The position numbers and the translations under genes were made by a program. From NCBI RefSeq assembly GCF_055900595.2, contig NZ_CM148325.1: a stretch of DNA of 64,000 nt, one strand, 5' to 3'. How positions within the stretch are numbered: the stretch's first letter is position 1; each line of letters begins with the position of its first letter. Below the pieces are notes generated by a model. The model saw only the letters and a list, made by a program, of their open reading frames with translations. It was not told the DNA's origin and did no database searches. Of this stretch, positions 3,870 through 35,120 are shown piece by piece.

Positions 3870-4510
3870 TTGTCGGTATACCTCTCTCGTTTGCTCAGTT
3901 GTTCAGGAATATGGTGCAGCAGCCCGCCGTCGCCGCAGTAAATGGCGGCATGATTCGGCACCGATGAACCAAAACAGCACAGCAGCACGTCGCCGGGCTG
4001 CGCCTCTGTCAGTGCGACACGGTAAAAACCAGTCGCCTCCATATTGTCAAGATAGAGATTCTGACCGTTACGCCACCAGTCATCCCCGCGATGAAAATCC
4101 GGCATCTCAATTCCCGCCAGATGGTAAGCATCCCGGAACAGCGTGTAACAGTCCGTCACCCCGTGCTCAAAGCACCGCCCGGTGAGATGCGGCACACAGC
4201 GGAACTTGTGAATCGCCCCCCGGCAGACCAGCCACCACGGCAAATCACTCTGCACCTGCAGCCGCCGGTCGGCCTCACTCAGCCAGGGCAGACCACCGGG
4301 GTGACTGTGGACCAGTGCCACAATCTCACCCTGCATCTCTGCCTGCAGCCAGTCCTCCGGCGACATCCGGAAATACGCCTCCGGCTCACCGGAGATATTC
4401 ACGCAGGGGAAATATCTTTCCCCCTCCGGCGCTCTCACCACGAAGCCGCACGACTCCGCTGGCGCACATCGCCGGGCGTGCGCCAGAATCGCTGATTCTG
4501 TCTCTGTCAT
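3767..4510 (-). CDS. K: tail assembly protein K (NlpC/P60 plus JAB/MPN-like)
   Basis: ORF 3767..4552; likely start MTETESAILAHARRCAPAESCGFVV; HSHP motif (VALVHSHPGG); lambda K-like. Confidence 0.85.
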   Translation of the reverse strand: MTETESAILAHARRCAPAESCGFVVRAPEGERYFPCVNISGEPEAYFRMSPEDWLQAEMQGEIVALVHSHPGGLPWLSEADRRLQVQSDLPWWLVCRGAIHKFRCVPHLTGRCFEHGVTDCYTLFRDAYHLAGIEMPDFHRGDDWWRNGQNLYLDNMEATGFYRVALTEAQPGDVLLCCFGSSVPNHAAIYCGDGGLLHHIPEQLSKRERYTDKWQRRTHSLWRHRAWHASAFTGICNDLAAASTFV

Positions 4511-17643: not shown

Positions 17644-19215
17644 ATGGACACCTCACTTGCTCATGAGAACGCCCGCCTGCGGGCACTGTTGCAGACGCAA
17701 CAGGACACCATCCGCCAGATGGCTGAATACAACCGCCTGCTCTCACAGCGGGTGGCGGCTTATGCTTCCGAAATCAACCGGCTGAAGGCGCTGGTTGCGA
17801 AACTGCAACGTATGCAGTTCGGTAAAAGCTCAGAAAAACTTCGTGCAAAAACCGAACGGCAGATACAGGAAGCACAGGAGCGAATCAGCGCACTTCAGGA
17901 AGAAATGGCGGAAACGCTGGGTGAGCAATATGACCCGGTACTGCCATCCGCCCTGCGCCAGTCTTCAGCCCGTAAACCGTTACCGGCCTCACTTCCCCGT
18001 GAAACCCGGGTTATCCGGCCGGAAGAGGAATGCTGTCCTGCCTGTGGTGGTGAACTCAGTTCTCTGGGATGTGATGTGTCAGAGCAACTGGAGCTTATCA
18101 GCAGCGCCTTTAAGGTTATCGAAACACAACGTCCGAAACAGGCCTGTTGCCGGTGCGACCATATCGTGCAGGCACCAGTACCTTCAAAACCCATTGCACG
18201 CAGTTATGCCGGAGCGGGGCTTCTGGCCCATGTTGTCACCGGGAAATATGCAGACCATCTGCCGTTATACCGCCAGTCAGAAATATACCGTCGTCAGGGA
18301 GTGGAGCTGAGCCGTGCCACACTGGGGCGCTGGACAGGTGCTGTTGCTGAACTGCTGGAGCCGCTGTATGACGTCCTGCGCCAGTATGTGCTGATGCCCG
18401 GTAAAGTCCATGCTGATGATATCCCCGTCCCGGTCCAGGAGCCGGGCAGCGGTAAAACCCGGACAGCCCGGCTGTGGGTCTACGTCCGTGATGACCGTAA
18501 CGCCGGTTCACAGATGCCCCCGGCGGTCTGGTTCGCGTACAGTCCGGACCGGAAAGGTATCCATCCACAAAATCACCTGGCCGGTTACAGCGGTGTGCTT
18601 CAGGCCGATGCTTACGGTGGTTACCGGGCGTTATACGAATCCGGCAGAATAACGGAAGCCGCGTGTATGGCTCATGCCCGGAGAAAAATCCACGATGTGC
18701 ATGCAAGAGCGCCCACCTACATCACCACGGAAGCCCTGCAGCGTATCGGTGAACTGTATGCCATCGAGGCAGAGGTCCGGGGCTGTTCAGCAGAACAGCG
18801 TCTGGCGGCAAGAAAAGCCAGAGCCGCGCCACTGATGCAGTCACTGTATGACTGGATACAGCAACAGATGAAAACACTGTCGCGTCACTCAGATACGGCA
18901 AAAGCGTTCGCATACCTGCTGAAACAGTGGGATGCACTGAACGTGTACTGCAGTAATGGCTGGGTGGAAATCGACAACAACATCGCAGAGAACGCCTTAC
19001 GGGGAGTGGCCGTAGGCCGGAAAAACTGGATGTTCGCGGGTTCCGACAGCGGTGGTGAACATGCGGCGGTGTTGTACTCGCTGATCGGCACATGCCGTCT
19101 GAACAATGTGGAGCCAGAAAAGTGGCTGCGTTACGTCATTGAACATATCCAGGACTGGCCGGCAAACCGGGTACGCGATCTGTTGCCCTGGAAAGTTGAT
19201 CTGAGCTCTCAGTAA
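17644..19215 (+). CDS. IS66-family transposase TnpC (orf3)
   Basis: 523-aa ORF; N-terminal leucine-zipper-like region, CxxC...CxxC zinc motif (CCPACGG...CCRCDH), DDE-type core. Confidence 0.9.
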
Positions 19216-19241: not shown

Positions 19242-20834
19242 TTACTTCATACGGGCATAGAGAATTTCTTTTGCGGTGTCCGTCCCCACTTCACACAGAT
19301 ACACGCCCCGCTGATTGCGGGTTTTTGGCATGGTGATCACCGGCTTGCCATAGACAGATGCGCCTTTTACCGGCAGCACCCGGAAAACACCGTGTTTTTT
19401 TGACCTCTGATAAACGATTTCGCCATCGATCCCCCCGATGTCCCAGCAGACACGGGAAATGGTCATTTCGGTTCCGTCTGCATGGCGGTATTTTTTGTTG
19501 ATCGCTGCATCCACACGTAACAGCGTCTCTTCCTCATCGGGACGTCCCATAATAATGATTTTATCCACCAGAAAGGCTTCCTCTCCCGGAGCCCATCCCC
19601 AGACATACATCTCAAAACGGTTTCGCTGCGAGTCAATGCCCGCCGTCAGATAAACCACCCGGGCAGGCACCGCCGCCGTGTAACGCACAACCTTATCCAT
19701 CAGTACCTGGTGATCGAGTTTTTCGCCCACGGCCTCTTCCCAGGTCTCGCCCAGCGTGGTGTTCACAAAGGTTTTCAGGCCGTTGGGATCTTTCAGTGCA
19801 TCCAGCCAGTCATAGACTATCTGTACCCAGGTGGTGAACGGACTGTACGCCGTCCAGATATGGAAAGTGATGGAGCGCGGCGGCGGAATTTCATCACCCC
19901 GGGCGCTGAAAAACATCAGGCCGTCACGGGTCCACATGCCCGTGTTTTCAGAGATCCACCGCCCGTTACTCTGGTCAAGCTCAGACTGATGGATCACACA
20001 GCCATGATGCTCACAAAGGTAGAAAACGCTTTCGGGGCTGTCCTTCTCCCATTTAAGGCCAAAAGGCGTGGATTCATCGCCAAATTTCAGATACTGCTCC
20101 TCCCCACAGTGCGGGCAGGGCACATAAAAACGCATGAAATGTGCCGACTCGTTAGCGGCTTTTTCGATCTGGCAGGAGCCTTTGATTTTAGGCGTCGAGC
20201 CGCGAATGGATTTTGGCCATACAGAGCCCTCAATACGCTTATCCCCCAGCAGGGTTGGCGAGCCCTCTTTTTCAACATCAGGTTCAAACGATGAGAGTTC
20301 GTCATAGCAGACCACGTCCACGGATTTTTCACGGTAGTTTTTTGCTGCCGCACCACCCAGGCACCAGAAGCCCACACCCGATGAAAAGCGTTTCAGCGTG
20401 AGAGTATTGTCACGATGTTTACGCCCCAGCCATGGAGAAAGGTCTTTCAGACATGGCACATCCCGAATCGTCGCCTCCACGTGAGACTTCATAAAATCTT
20501 CAGCGGCAGAATCCGTGGGCTGAAAAAGCAGACTGTTTCGGGATTTATGCTCAATAAAATACCCGACCACCCCCAGCAACATCTTTGTATAACCAACACG
20601 GGCAGATTTAATCAGGTTAACAGTGCGAATCAGATCGTTGCCCATACAGTTCATGATGGCGATCTGGAACGGCAGCGTTTTCCATTCTCCCTCACCATAT
20701 GAAGATTCTTTAGGCAGATAATAATTTTGATCAGCCCATTCAACTGCCGTCACCGGCAATGCCCTTATCAGGGGCTGTAATGCTGTTGTGACAGCACTCA
20801 TCATATTATTCAGTTGTTGCTCTGATATATTCAT
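19242..20834 (-). pseudogene. A: terminase large subunit A, N-terminal fragment (truncated by IS66 insertion)
   Basis: Starts MNISEQQLNN..., contains TAVEWADQNYYLPKES and KNYREKSVDV (Walker-like) as in lambda gpA; the stop codon lies inside the IS end. Confidence 0.9.
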
Positions 20835-21315
20835 CGAGTAAATCCGGTAATTTATCCCCTGCCCGCGCACACTGATTTGCCCCCTTCGCAATAAGGGTTT
20901 TCAGATGGTCAAGATGGCGCGGTGTTAAATCAGGAAACTGTCGTTGCATGGATAAAGGGATGGAATCAAGCGTACTGGATAACGCCATTGCCAGCTTGCT
21001 GAGGGCAAAAATACAGAACCCGGTGTCAATAAGTTTTCCTTTTGACACCTCATTTTTTAACTGCTGTGTAACAGCCTGTTCTGCTGTCAGTTCCCATCTG
21101 GCAATAAGCAATTTCTCCTCATAGTCGTCTTCGCTATCGCCATCAGGCACATCGTTTTTACTTCTTCTCAGATACGATATGTAAAAATCACGCCAGGCAT
21201 CCAGATCCAGTTGCCCTCGCTTATTCGATATCGGGGCACCCGGCAATTTCTGCAGTCTGCGAAGCTGGCGATCGGTCAGACTCAAATGCCTGGCAACTTC
21301 AGTCTGCGTAGCCAC
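20806..21315 (-). CDS. nu1: terminase small subunit Nu1
   Basis: 169-aa ORF; N-terminal HTH (MATQTEVARHLSLTDRQLRRL); overlaps start of A; cos immediately upstream. Confidence 0.8.
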   Translation of the reverse strand: MATQTEVARHLSLTDRQLRRLQKLPGAPISNKRGQLDLDAWRDFYISYLRRSKNDVPDGDSEDDYEEKLLIARWELTAEQAVTQQLKNEVSKGKLIDTGFCIFALSKLAMALSSTLDSIPLSMQRQFPDLTPRHLDHLKTLIAKGANQCARAGDKLPDLLDEYIRATTE

Positions 21316-21379
21316 TGTTCACCTCGCAAAAAATCTCCCCTCATGCGTTTTAAACATGCATCTTGCGAGCAACTTTATG

Positions 21380-21545
21380 CAAACGCACGCATATGTCCGG
21401 TTTGTTTGTACATTTTTTGCACATGTCCGGTTCGCAGAAAGCATGTTTTTATATTTTTCATATAGTTAACTTGCAGAGAAACCGGACATGGATCCCGGAA
21501 AATTTTCATAAATAGCGAAAACGCGCGAGGTCGACGCCCCGTAAC
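21380..21545 (-). promoter_or_regulatory. cos region (cosB-like terminase binding repeats and cosN)
   Basis: Repeated ATGTCCGGTT elements at ~21395, ~21421 and inverted at ~21482; 21528-21540 reverse complement GGGGCGTCGACCT resembles lambda cohesive end GGGCGGCGACCT. Confidence 0.7.
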
Positions 21546-21690
21546 CTGTTGGATCGCCGGAAAGGACCCGAAAAAAACGAGAATAATTATCACTTACAGC
21601 AAGAATCGAATCTGATCTATTCTGATGCTTGCTATTATGTGCCGGCACAAGTGCGTCGTTTACCGTCATTTCACACAGAGGCATCATCAA

Positions 21691-21942
21691 ATGAAAATCA
21701 GAAATATTCTCGCTATCTCCCTTGCAACATCATCCTTCAGTTGCCTGGCATTTAAACCCTCGCCCAATGTGCTACCAGGACCAACGAATCAACTAACTGC
21801 GGTAGAAAGTAAAATTATCGGACATTTTTATGCCCCACACAGTGCATTACCCGGAACAACCATCACAGGGACATGTGACGCCTCCCCCATTCCGGGATGC
21901 ACCTGTCCGTTTTGTACTATGCTGCGTAGCCAAAACCGATAA
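21691..21942 (+). CDS. small secreted cysteine-containing protein (hypothetical moron)
   Basis: Start MKIRNILAISLATSSFSCLA (signal-peptide-like) preceded by AGAGG RBS; mature part has CDASPIPGCTCPFC cluster; opposite strand to late operon. Confidence 0.5.
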   Translation: MKIRNILAISLATSSFSCLAFKPSPNVLPGPTNQLTAVESKIIGHFYAPHSALPGTTITGTCDASPIPGCTCPFCTMLRSQNR

Positions 21943-22306
21943 CATCCGCATTTACCTGGTATTCCATGATGAGTTCACGCAGCGACTGATAGAGTAAGGA
22001 AAGATGGTTAGCAAAAGCAAAGGCGCATTGCCGCCGCATGCTGCAGGCATTGCAACAGACGAGAGCAGGTATTTTTGACCAGTTGGAAAACTGCCAGCAT
22101 ACTTTGCCCGAGCATATCGCCATCTCATCGGAAACCAGTGCAACTCTTATTCATCGGGTTACACCAGAGAAAAAGAAGAAATGAACAGTGAGGCGTTGTG
22201 TGGCATACAACGCCTTCTTCCATCATTTCTCGTCAGCCATGACAAAAATATAACCGCTGGCTCTTTCATTTTTCTCCTGCTTCCAGCCCCTCTCTACCTG
22301 GAAGCA

Positions 22307-22633
22307 TCAGGGACGTGATGGCGTAAAGATAAATTGTCTCTTCACTCCCTGACGGGGACTATTCTTTTCAAATCTCCATTTCGCCATGGCCTTCACCACT
22401 TCATCACGAAACAAATTATGAGGCTCTGAGCGGAGAAAAACGATCCGTGTCACAGTCCCGTCAGCACCAATATCGAACTTAACCTCAACCAGCCCCTTGA
22501 TATAATTTGCTGCAGCATATTCCGGATATCGTGGATACACCGTCACTAATTGCCGGGGCTCATCAGCTTTTTGCTGCGAGCATCCCACTGCCAGGGCAGA
22601 TAACAGAAAAAGTAGTGAAAGGCGTCTTTTCAT
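22307..22633 (-). CDS. lipoprotein with TonB C-terminal-like domain
   Basis: Start MKRRLSLLFLLSALAVGCSQ (lipobox AVGC) with AGGA RBS; body YPEYAAANYIKGLVEVKFDIGADGTVTRIVFLRSEPHNLFRDEVVKAMAKWRFE aligns with host TonB C-terminus in this same window ([54 protein letters not shown]). Confidence 0.7.
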   Translation of the reverse strand: MKRRLSLLFLLSALAVGCSQQKADEPRQLVTVYPRYPEYAAANYIKGLVEVKFDIGADGTVTRIVFLRSEPHNLFRDEVVKAMAKWRFEKNSPRQGVKRQFIFTPSRP

Positions 22634-23265
22634 TTTTATTCCTACGGGTCTTATTCTGACAATATATCCTGTGTTCCAGACTGCCATATCACCACATCCT
22701 GTGCCATTATCTGACTCACATTACATACATCGCATCAGGATACAGTAGTAGCACTTTCTGTAATACAGCTTCCGGTTTCTTCCACCATCGCACCGGACTG
22801 GCGAGCATGAGGGACAAACCCGCGAACCATAAACGCGGTAAAAACCCGGTGTGCATCGTTTTTGATTATTCCCGCACACTCGCGCAGAAGGAGTTCCCCG
22901 TCGGGCTACGGTCATGGTTAATGCGGGAATACAGCGACGATACAGCGCATGATGTGTCAGGCTTGAATACCTTTATCCGTTAAAAGGGATATCAGTTAAG
23001 TTATCCCGTGTAGGGTATAAGCCATTATCAAAGCCACTCTGTAGGGAGTGGCTTTTGTAATGGCAATAAAAAAGCCCCGCGAATGCGAGGCTAAATCCAG
23101 GTATTTTTAATGACTGGCTCTTATCTCAACGCAGCCCCTTACCGCGCGCCAGATGCTCAATATCAAGCATCAGCAATGAGATGTTTAATCTGGATTCACT
23201 CCAGAAGTGATCACCACCCTGTCTACAGAGCCAGATGTGAAGGATGATGAGTAAAATTATCGCTA

Positions 23266-23748
23266 TCATCGAAGGCATTGCGTCCTGATGTATTCCTGAA
23301 GCGTTCTCAGTGCTGTCTGGTCGCGGATAATTCCGTCCCGGATACCGAGAACGTTTCGTCCAGCAACTGGAGAGAGTTCGACGGTGGCATCATTGCCCAT
23401 GCCGGAGGCGCTGGAGGTTTCGGCTGAGGATGGCACAGGGCATTTTCCTTTGACGAGCACCCTGCCACCATTATCAAGCTTGCGCCGAAGAGCATCATTT
23501 TCAGCTTTCGCATCAGCTAACTCCTTCGTGTATTTTGCATCGAGCGCAGCAACATCACGCTGACGCTGCTGCATGTCAGCGATGGTGGCGGTCGCCTGCT
23601 TCAGCTCACTGACTTTTTTATCACGTTGTTCTTTGTAGGCTATGGCGTTATCACGGTAATGATTGACCGCCAACGACAGGCAGACGATGATGCAGATAAC
23701 CAGAGCATAAATAATCGCGGCGACTCTGCTCACTGATCTATCCCCCAA
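23266..23748 (-). CDS. Rz: spanin inner-membrane subunit Rz
   Basis: N-terminal TM segment [28 protein letters not shown] and [24 protein letters not shown] match lambda Rz; start uncertain. Confidence 0.9.
23307..23513 (-). CDS. Rz1: spanin outer-membrane lipoprotein Rz1 (embedded in Rz, +1 frame)
   Basis: [21 protein letters not shown] lipobox and Pro-rich [13 protein letters not shown], like lambda Rz1. Confidence 0.85.
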
Positions 23749-24263
23749 CAGGCTAATGCGCTTTCCTGGTCACGACGAATAACCTGTCCATAGCAGTTAT
23801 TTGAACGGATACGGCAGTCACGCCCACCATCCTTTATCCACCAGCGAATCGCCTCGCAGGCGCCTTTTCGATCACCGGCATTAAGCCGCTTATAAAACGT
23901 CGACGGGAAACACTTACCGGGGCCAATGTTATAGGGACAGAATGACGCAATACCCGCTTTCTGTGGTTCGGTCAGAGGTACTTTAATATTGCGCTCCACC
24001 CATGCCAGTGCCTTATCACGTTCAATAGCGTTAACCTGGTCGCATTTTTCCTTCGACAGCTTCATTCCGGGAAAAACGGGTTTTCCATCCACCATCGTGG
24101 CACCCCGACAGATGGTCCAGATGCCGGACCCATCGCGGTATGCCGTTGTGTGGTTACCCTCTTTTTCGTCCAGAAACTGATCAAGTATCTGAGGAGCAGA
24201 TGCGCCAGCACCAATCAGCGCCAGAACGGCAGCCGACAGGCCGTATCTGATTTTTGCGTTCAT
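23730..24263 (-). CDS. R: SAR endolysin (T4-lysozyme-like, GH24)
   Basis: N-terminal weakly hydrophobic Gly/Ala-rich segment [16 protein letters not shown]; catalytic E..D..T spacing ([24 protein letters not shown]). Confidence 0.85.
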
Positions 24264-34869: not shown

Positions 34870-35120
34870 CCCCCCTTCACAAATTTTAAAGCCTTACATT
34901 TCAATGTATTGGCTTTATTTTGCATTAAATATTGAGTTTTCTAATCAAAACACTTGACCAATTTTCATGAGAAAACTAAATTACCATCCATCAAGACACC
35001 GCACGGTGTTCTCAGCAAACAGTTCCGCTACCCCGGCGTTAAGGGGAAACAGAGGATTTCTCAGTGGGCGAAGTCAAACATCAGAATGGAAGGCATCCCG
35101 GGATCGGCAAAGAAGCAGCA

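Follow-up and report, generated by a model that had tools for sequence, protein, structure and literature searches.

A conserved, unannotated gene beside cos of a phage-21-like prophage and its probably Zur-regulated family in Enterobacterales

The 83-codon gene and its prophage

A stretch of 64,000 nucleotides (nt) from contig NZ_CM148325.1 (assembly GCF_055900595.2), here called the window, carries a lambdoid, phage-21-like (Jouyvirus) prophage with its late genes on the minus strand. Between the lysis genes and the cohesive-end site (cos) of this prophage, an open reading frame (ORF) of 83 codons was located on the plus strand at 21691..21942, from ATG 21691 to TAA 21940-21942 (stop included). 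As judged from sequence comparison, the ORF is a translated gene under purifying selection, and its product belongs to an uncharacterised family that can, with good confidence, be added to the Zur regulon of Enterobacterales. A Shine-Dalgarno sequence, AGAGG (21677-21681, plus strand), lay 9 nt 5' of the start codon. In the E. coli copy, the Citrobacter copy, the K. pneumoniae plasmid copy and one of the two Salmonella island copies, a purine-rich block was likewise followed by aTCATCAa/gATG. An upstream in-frame ATG at 21625 would give an alternative form of 105 amino acids (aa); in the orthologue alignment conservation set in at M1 (21691), not at 21625. ORFs of at least 40 aa overlapping the surrounding 6-kb stretch numbered 51, showing that the length of the 83-aa ORF alone was not beyond chance. 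No minus-strand ORF covered it over 21691-21916.

Alignment with the right ends of phage 21 (together with its cosQ annotation) and lambda placed cos at 21528..21569 (minus strand), with the cohesive-end sequence GGGCGTCGACCT at 21528-21539, the cosN nick at 21539/21540 and cosQ (GGGTCCT) at 21563-21569. ATG 21691 sat 122 nt from cosQ, and the gene opposed late transcription. Late genes on the minus strand included the lysis genes (23266-24263), Nu1 (20806-21315) and a terminase large-subunit gene (19242-20891), which was truncated by an IS66 insertion to 549 aa vs approximately 642 aa in intact relatives; the IS66-family transposase gene (17644-19215, plus strand) abutted the terminase ORF. 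The IS66-disrupted prophage is probably packaging-defective, and its cos-proximal accessory genes were nevertheless kept. Lambda had no 83-aa gene at the equivalent cos-proximal site, and homologues were found on chromosomes and plasmids. By its orientation, its absence from lambda and the existence of these homologues, the gene is judged to be an accessory (moron) gene of the phage-21-like prophage. A preliminary description of the locus had given the same coordinates, translation and ribosome-binding site, a signal-peptide-like N-terminus with a terminal four-Cys cluster, and a moron position next to cos opposing the late operon. These features were all recovered here, the N-terminus and the Cys cluster at the sequence level.

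Conservation, selection and distribution

A homology search with the 83-aa query over 5.8 billion proteins returned 13 clusters (58-98% identity), the complete ones of which had 82-84 aa from the conserved start and belonged to E. coli, Salmonella and Citrobacter. Full-length orthologues of 82-85 aa were found in E. coli, Salmonella, Citrobacter, Buttiauxella, Enterobacter and Klebsiella. Nei-Gojobori statistics were calculated on the DNA of six diverged orthologues, to which the Buttiauxella, Enterobacter and Klebsiella plasmid copies were added later. The proportion of synonymous differences (pS) between the window copy and the six orthologues was 0.75-0.83, near saturation, and the proportion of nonsynonymous differences (pN) was 0.17-0.23; pairs without the window copy gave ratios of nonsynonymous to synonymous substitution rates (dN/dS) of 0.10-0.28. 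Across orthologue comparisons overall, pS was 0.45-0.89 and pN 0.05-0.31 (pN/pS 0.10-0.35), and the three copies added later showed the same pattern of purifying selection. Changes fell mostly on third codon positions (approximately 50 of 83, vs approximately 10 at second positions), in the order third >> first > second. Orthologues with 55-70% identity in protein kept the frame although synonymous sites were nearly saturated, demonstrating that the 83-aa ORF is a real gene. Lack of conservation in related prophages, which the preliminary description had named as evidence that would count against the gene, was not found; the ORF was conserved in phage 21 and other E. coli prophages.

The gene was uncalled in the curated record of phage 21 (OL657228) and in the RefSeq annotation, made with the Prokaryotic Genome Annotation Pipeline (PGAP), of LH50-c and two sequence type 131 (ST131) genomes including EC958. 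Annotated instead were minus-strand ORFs of 40-60 aa, most of which overlapped the 3' end of the gene, and in LH50-c also a plus-strand ORF of 48 aa further on. At 95% identity or more and full length, the gene was present in 1222 of 5426 complete E. coli genomes (approximately 22%), including EC958 (ST131), LF82 and uropathogenic E. coli (UPEC) 536. When 30 matches were sampled evenly down the ranking of these genomes, every one spanned exactly 252 nt, indicating that there were no indels. Seven phage records carried the gene: phage 21, ev017 (two records), Perceval, PhiR47_2, PhiR57_1 and PhiR63_2. A 61%-identical copy was found on 64 Klebsiella/Enterobacter plasmids, and 73 plasmid records matched, most of them typed conjugative. 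A recognisable cos remnant lay 5' of the family gene in the Klebsiella-type plasmid examined, showing that the plasmid copy is a phage-derived fragment. Since it is unannotated, the gene is invisible to annotation-based transcriptomic, proteomic and transposon-sequencing analyses; none of the genomes inspected has this selected gene in its RefSeq annotation, yet it is common in extraintestinal pathogenic E. coli (ExPEC), including the clinically dominant ST131.

Two minor E. coli allele clusters (P0003 and P0006, four members each) carried a compensated double frameshift that changed residues ~55-65, including C62, to EQPSQGHV-TPP; this reflects either sequencing error or occasional decay.

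The protein family

A profile search over 1.84 billion cluster representatives gave 30 matches, about two dozen of which were proteins of 79-88 aa. The named sources (Escherichia, Salmonella, Citrobacter, Klebsiella, Enterobacter, Serratia and Pantoea) were all Enterobacterales, and Buttiauxella members were added by a genome scan with a narrower alignment, which returned five loci. The family was common in environmental Enterobacterales (Buttiauxella, Pantoea and Serratia plymuthica). These searches describe an uncharacterised family of approximately 80 aa found only in Enterobacterales.

Neither the protein nor the family matched Pfam, PHROGs, NCBIfam, PADLOC or PDB (by sequence and by profile); in Pfam-A the query had no match even with the threshold relaxed to E <= 10, and 11 members had none at E <= 0.1. 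No homology in sequence or profile to ZinT, AztD or ZnuA/AztC was found via Pfam, NCBIfam and PDB sequences, and a literature search for peptide strings of the family found no occurrence. The homology search outlined in the preliminary description thus recovered an Enterobacterales family and no library family, and its remark that the protein is not like STa, EAST1 or Bor agreed with the lack of a Pfam match. Phage morons between the lysis genes and cos are a known kind, as are periplasmic proteins under Zur control; this protein family was absent from all libraries consulted and from the literature searched.

Precursor and mature protein

Residues 1-20 (21691..21750, plus strand; N-terminus MKIRNILAISLATSSFSCLA) form a predicted Sec signal peptide. 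By sequence rules, it has two basic residues (MK-I-R), an uncharged core of approximately 12 residues (ILAISLATSSF) and a C-L-A|F junction, at which signal peptidase I (SPase I) is predicted to cut (A20|F21). In 25 family members with 28-92% identity to the window protein, A20 (-1) and F21 (+1) were invariant and the -3 position was A, C, S, V, G or Q, with most members reading A-x-A|F at 18-21. The hydrophobic core varied in sequence across the family while the cleavage junction stayed constant. The product is probably exported by Sec, cut by SPase I after Ala20 and soluble in the periplasm. Processing as a lipoprotein by signal peptidase II was considered and rejected: Cys18 was preceded by S-F-S with no Leu at -3, and A, V, S or Q stood in its place in 14 of the 25 members. 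Since Cys18 is replaced outside the E. coli/Salmonella subfamily, it is taken to occupy position -3 of an SPase I site rather than to be a lipobox Cys. A lipoprotein form confined to that subfamily is improbable.

The predicted mature periplasmic protein has 63 aa (21751..21939, plus strand) and carries a C-x7-C-x-C-x2-C cluster (C62, C70, C72 and C75; 21874..21915, plus strand) in the tail CDASPIPGCTCPFC, where the last helix is predicted to begin at the CPFC knuckle. When 30 mature sequences were aligned, the four Cys were the sole invariant columns and the N-terminal Phe was nearly invariant. In the 25-sequence full-length alignment, A20, F21, C62, C70, C72 and C75 were invariant, and M1, K2, G60, P66, G69, L78 and R79 nearly so. 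The Cys4 pattern was present in 92 distinct mature sequences, a set selected for that pattern. An E-S-x-I-x3-F-Y-S-x-H segment of the mature part was weakly conserved, and the tail G-T-C-x-A-x-P-V-P-G-C-x-C-P-F-C-T-M-L-R strongly. Four invariant, closely spaced Cys, as in a Zn(Cys)4 or metallothionein-like site, are therefore present at the level of sequence. The net charge of the mature peptide was approximately +2, and it is not strongly cationic.

Two proteins of approximately 600 aa (P0034 and P0036), Asn-rich and eukaryote-like, contained four or five repeats of PxPGCNCPKCTxLRN with three Cys per repeat. The repeats closely resembled the family tail PVPGCxCPFCTMLRS and had no significant Pfam family; a motif of this type may be an autonomous metal-binding module.

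Zinc genes and Zur boxes around the relatives

The neighbourhoods of non-phage members had no common partner gene, but they had a common zinc theme. On the K. pneumoniae chromosome, the family gene was convergent with aztD-aztC (AztD 459 bits, cutoff 400; AztC 380 bits, cutoff 350). It lay 3' of zigA in the P0029 lineage (ZigA 701 bits, cutoff 600) and 3' of a P1B heavy-metal ATPase gene in Enterobacter. The Pantoea copy stood between an operon of dksA-like, folE2 and gamma-carbonic-anhydrase-like genes (FolE2 296 bits, cutoff 215) and genes for a COG0523 GTPase, a Fur-family regulator and a cysS paralogue, which is a classic zinc-sparing cluster. In Salmonella arizonae/diarizonae and other S. 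enterica, the gene was found 95 nt downstream of a 133-aa gene for PliG (YcgK), the inhibitor of g-type lysozyme (7.6e-58 to PDB 4DY3); in E. coli, PliG has been proven to be under Zur control (PMC4219657).

The 300 nt 5' of each copy were scanned with the gamma-proteobacterial Zur consensus GAAATGTTATANTATAACATTTC (22 positions), which is confirmed in PMC4219657. Boxes (positions from the ATG) were found at -43 in C. koseri (16/22) and Serratia (15/22), at -111 on the K. pneumoniae chromosome (16/22; ATGTTATTTTATAACAT), at -40 in B. noackiae (16/22; AATGTTATTATATAACAA), at -42 in B. warmboldiae (15/22), at -102 in Enterobacter sp. (15/22) and at -93 in the P0029 lineage (17/22). In Pantoea, where dksA2 and the family gene diverge from a common region of 77 nt, the box (14/22) was at -47. 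Of random 300-nt windows drawn from these loci, 5% had a match of 15/22 or better, a background that includes the true sites. A perfect Zur core, aTTGTTATAGTATAACAAa, stood approximately 30 nt 5' of the pliG start in all five Salmonella loci. Only 13 matches of at least 16/22 were found in 213 kb, and all but three were directly 5' of a family gene, the Salmonella pliG-family pair or zigA; the exceptions were a chance match at window position 34880 and a Fur-like box 5' of bor in two Salmonella loci. The Zur boxes and their near-exclusive placement argue, with good confidence, that the family is an unrecognised and unnamed member of the Zur regulon across Enterobacterales.

In the Salmonella loci (L006, L007, L010, L024 and L025) the order was perfect Zur core, pliG homologue, family gene, Fur-like box (CAAATGATAAAAATTATCATTTC), bor and omptin protease gene, and genes for a serine protease autotransporter (SPATE) and a SET-domain protein were found nearby. 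Read from its genes and operators, this island is an envelope and host-defence gene cluster under metal-starvation operators. A Band_7/SPFH (HflK-like) gene of approximately 630 aa adjoined the family gene in three otherwise different neighbourhoods (L028 3396-5279, L029 1-1035 and L035 1-1356), in two of them beside zigA or the P1B ATPase gene, and may be another unrecognised member of these zinc clusters. The C. koseri copy (L009 4046-4300), with its good Zur box, stood by itself, flanked by icd and a lipid A acyltransferase gene of the lpxL/lpxP type, with no phage genes in 4 kb on either side. Phage 21 and e14 integrate at icd; the C. koseri copy may be a remnant that was domesticated, or it may show the ancestral state.

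Two leads from outside these loci were dropped. P. aeruginosa PA5534, an unannotated gene of the Zur-regulated dksA2-zigA operon, was considered as an analogue; the 1.84-billion search gave no match whose source was identified as lying outside Enterobacterales, and no link is claimed. The second lead was the Zur-regulated 'c1265-7' genes of CFT073, a term found neither in the searched literature nor in Velasco 2018.

Proposed function and alternatives

With about even confidence, we read the product as a periplasmic protein of the zinc-starvation response that takes part in handling metal; the specific Cys4-Zn chemistry is held less firmly than the general zinc-starvation role. Sec export and SPase I cleavage after Ala20 would yield a periplasmic Cys4 protein of approximately 63 residues, whose motif would bind Zn(II) or a competing thiophilic metal under zinc limitation. 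The bound metal would then be buffered or handed to ZnuA/ZinT or AztC/AztD; alternatively, within the same model, the protein would sequester competing thiophilic metals. Capture by a phage would have uncoupled the copy from Zur, with loss of the Zur operator. In the lysogen, a promoter of its own probably drives the phage copy, which would thereby function for the host independently of Zur. Metal binding is favoured because C-x-C and C-P-x-C are typical of metallothionein-type and zinc-knuckle sites and the Cys are strictly conserved. We infer export and the cleavage site from sequence rules alone; metal binding, a gain for the lysogen and the way in which the phage copy is expressed are likewise inferred.

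The family resembles ZinT (YodA) and AztD in being predicted as Sec-exported and periplasmic, in its Zur boxes, in the K. pneumoniae member beside aztD-aztC and in its proposed job of bringing zinc to an ATP-binding cassette (ABC) importer. However, it has no sequence similarity to either, its mature form is approximately 63 aa long vs approximately 200 and 400 aa, and its candidate ligands are four Cys vs His, Asp and Glu. Bacterial metallothioneins and zincophores (SmtA/BmtA and YezP, which is secreted by a type VI secretion system) are small zinc binders with C-x-C and C-x2-C spacings, and some are Zur-controlled or scavenge zinc. They differ from the family in being cytoplasmic or exported by type VI secretion and in having more Cys/His or other ligands, and there is no sequence relationship.

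Several observations weigh against a zinc-handling role. DsbA normally oxidises Cys in the periplasm, and the four may pair as two disulfides, as the preliminary description assumed, instead of binding metal. Periplasmic zinc chaperones of known type use His, Asp or Glu, not Cys. AlphaFold2 gave no structural support: mean predicted local distance difference test (pLDDT) scores were 59.8 and 61.5 with the 25-sequence full-length and 30-sequence mature alignments, and the low-confidence models had two helices, one central and one last, the latter beginning at the CPFC knuckle. The window copy had no Zur box (best match 12/22 at -254, and no TGTTATNNNATAACA within two mismatches near the gene), so zinc regulation of this copy is unsupported by its upstream sequence. 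A scan for consensus promoters and terminators found no convincing promoter 5' or terminator 3' of the ORF. PliG, moreover, is a Zur-regulated periplasmic protein that does not handle zinc (PMC4219657). Nor did a Zur box precede the gene in phage 21, in two other E. coli prophage variants (L003 and L012), in the copies from the Klebsiella plasmid and the K. variicola plasmid/island, or on a Salmonella integrative and conjugative element.

A bolder form of the zinc-handling reading, offered tentatively and rather doubtful, is that of a mobile periplasmic 'mini-metallothionein': the Cys4 protein of approximately 63 aa would compete with calprotectin for Zn(II) and feed ZnuABC or AztABCD, and the Zur-free prophage copy would allow constitutive scavenging. 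If true, ExPEC (ST131, LF82, UPEC 536) and Klebsiella with the plasmid copy would have a zinc-scavenging advantage in inflamed tissue, and the all-Cys periplasmic site would be chemically unusual. The protein would be a new candidate in periplasmic zinc handling, where the steps from the outer membrane to ZnuA/AztC are poorly understood. Together with a PliG homologue in the Gifsy-1 prophage, it would suggest that temperate phages and conjugative plasmids acquire metal-starvation genes and detach them from the host repressor, making a lysogenic-conversion trait for nutritional immunity.

As the leading alternative, it is possible, though in our estimate unlikely, that the product is instead a disulfide-stabilised periplasmic protein with a non-metal role (e.g., an inhibitor of, or decoy for, an antimicrobial enzyme), co-regulated by Zur since low zinc signals an inflamed host. 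Exported proteins with an even number of Cys usually have them paired in disulfides, and the periplasm is oxidising. The position of the Salmonella arizonae/diarizonae gene 3' of a Zur-boxed pliG homologue fits this explanation, as does PliG itself, which shows that Zur control need not imply zinc handling. The Gifsy-1 PliG homologue (PDB 4DY5) is a second temperate-phage-borne gene of a type that is Zur-regulated in E. coli, and the bor/iss, omptin and TonB-like lipoprotein neighbours are envelope-defence morons. PliG is, like the family protein, small, Sec-exported, periplasmic, Zur-linked and found on a prophage; by contrast, it is a 111-aa beta-sandwich of unrelated sequence without a Cys cluster, and the family protein has no lysozyme-inhibitor motif. 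The five independent neighbourhood types hold genes of zinc uptake or sparing, not of defence. Further, the mature part is almost without invariant residues besides Cys, which would be unusual for a specific protein inhibitor, and the C-x-C and C-x2-C spacings are, from general knowledge, atypical of purely structural disulfides.

An envelope function that serves the phage, such as superinfection exclusion or receptor masking by analogy with T4 Spackle, P1 Sim and Cor, is improbable. Temperate phages encode the gene among the accessory genes near cos, opposing the late operon, and the adjoining lipoprotein with a TonB C-terminal domain could itself disturb TonB-dependent receptors. However, most lineages of the family are chromosomal, Zur-boxed and in zinc clusters without nearby phage genes; PADLOC gave no match; and the gene was kept in an IS66-crippled prophage and on plasmids with only a cos remnant. 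The Bor/Iss morons of lambda share the lysis-cos niche, the orientation opposing the late operon, the envelope destination and variable presence, and they occur near the family gene, which shares one region with iss in EC958 and adjoins bor in Salmonella. Bor and Iss, however, are lipoproteins of PF06291 without homology to the family, and Bor has no chromosomal Zur-regulated relatives.

The preliminary description had suggested a toxin, a bacteriocin-like peptide or a virulence factor, and this suggestion was not borne out; a secreted enterotoxin-like or bacteriocin-like peptide now appears very improbable. The small signal-peptide precursor with a compact four-Cys C-terminal loop is loosely like the two-disulfide peptides guanylin and EAST1 and like heat-stable enterotoxins, and the gene is found on mobile elements in ExPEC and on Klebsiella plasmids. 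However, the number and spacing of Cys differ, and eight conserved residues (TMLRSxxx) follow the last Cys in the family protein. Searches gave no hit to STa, STb or EAST1, nor to a Pfam family of any kind. With its A-x-A end, the leader is not of the double-glycine type, and neither a type I exporter (peptidase-domain ABC transporter plus membrane-fusion protein) nor a plausible immunity gene was found in approximately 15 neighbourhoods. A Sec signal by itself reaches the periplasm only. The net charge of the mature peptide is low. The family is widespread in non-pathogenic and environmental Enterobacterales and stands under Zur boxes, a distribution and regulation that point away from toxins.

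That the ORF is no gene but a chance frame, or a product of cos-related or antisense conservation, is next to negligible: it was left uncalled by PGAP and the phage 21 curators, ORFs of similar length are common in the region and a canonical promoter is missing, but the substitution pattern with the frame kept effectively refutes this explanation, and the gene was found in unrelated contexts without cos and with no minus-strand ORF covering it.

Upstream elements of the phage copy

A candidate regulatory region was seen at 21630..21649 (plus strand), where an extended -10-like sequence, TGcTATTAT (21630-21638), overlaps a perfect palindrome, TGTGCCGGCACA (21638-21649), which is not a Zur box. 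At the aligned position, the other phage-type copies (L003 and L012) had a different palindrome, GTTACGTgttaACGTAAC; the promoter scan did not call the element in the window, and its regulatory role is putative. Descent of the phage promoter from a decayed Zur operator was also considered, since its left half, TATTATGT, resembles TGTTATGT and GTTACGT of L003 matches the left half of the Enterobacter sp. box. Such descent is not claimed, as the upstream multiple alignment gave no robust homology.

Beside cosQ, a Fur-box-like 19-mer, AAAAACGAGAATAATTATC, was found at 21573..21591 (plus strand), with 14/19 positions matching GATAATGATAATCATTATC. The corresponding sequence matched at 15/19 in phage 21, L003 and L012, and was also present in lambda (GTGATAATGATTATCATC), which has no 83-aa gene; the box was therefore left unassigned to this gene. 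It heads a leftward unit each time, consisting of the 83-aa gene and/or a DUF3950 gene. The box may be part of cos itself or of the leftward transcription unit next to it; alternatively, cos-proximal morons may be iron-regulated.

Neighbouring genes and additional observations

The TonB-C-terminal-domain lipoprotein gene lay at 22307-22687 (minus strand; likely start 22633) and scored 48 bits against NCBIfam tonB_Cterm (cutoff 27). It was present in the phage 21 record and in the E. coli prophage copies inspected. PHROGs names its family (phrog_1267) 'Rz-like spanin', an apparent mislabel. Two small window ORFs at 21917-22123 (minus strand) and 22038-22184 (plus strand) matched the PHROGs of unknown function phrog_3744 and phrog_4843; they correspond to the small ORFs called at this place by PGAP and the phage 21 curators. 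An Rfam scan of 20800-23300 gave only two sub-threshold small RNA matches, elsewhere in that region. In L003, an uncalled ORF of 44 aa with a lipoprotein-type signal (VKYFALISALLLSAC...) was found at 4345-4479 (plus strand) between the family gene and the DUF3950 gene; at the same place in L012, the gene caller had set a minus-strand ORF instead.

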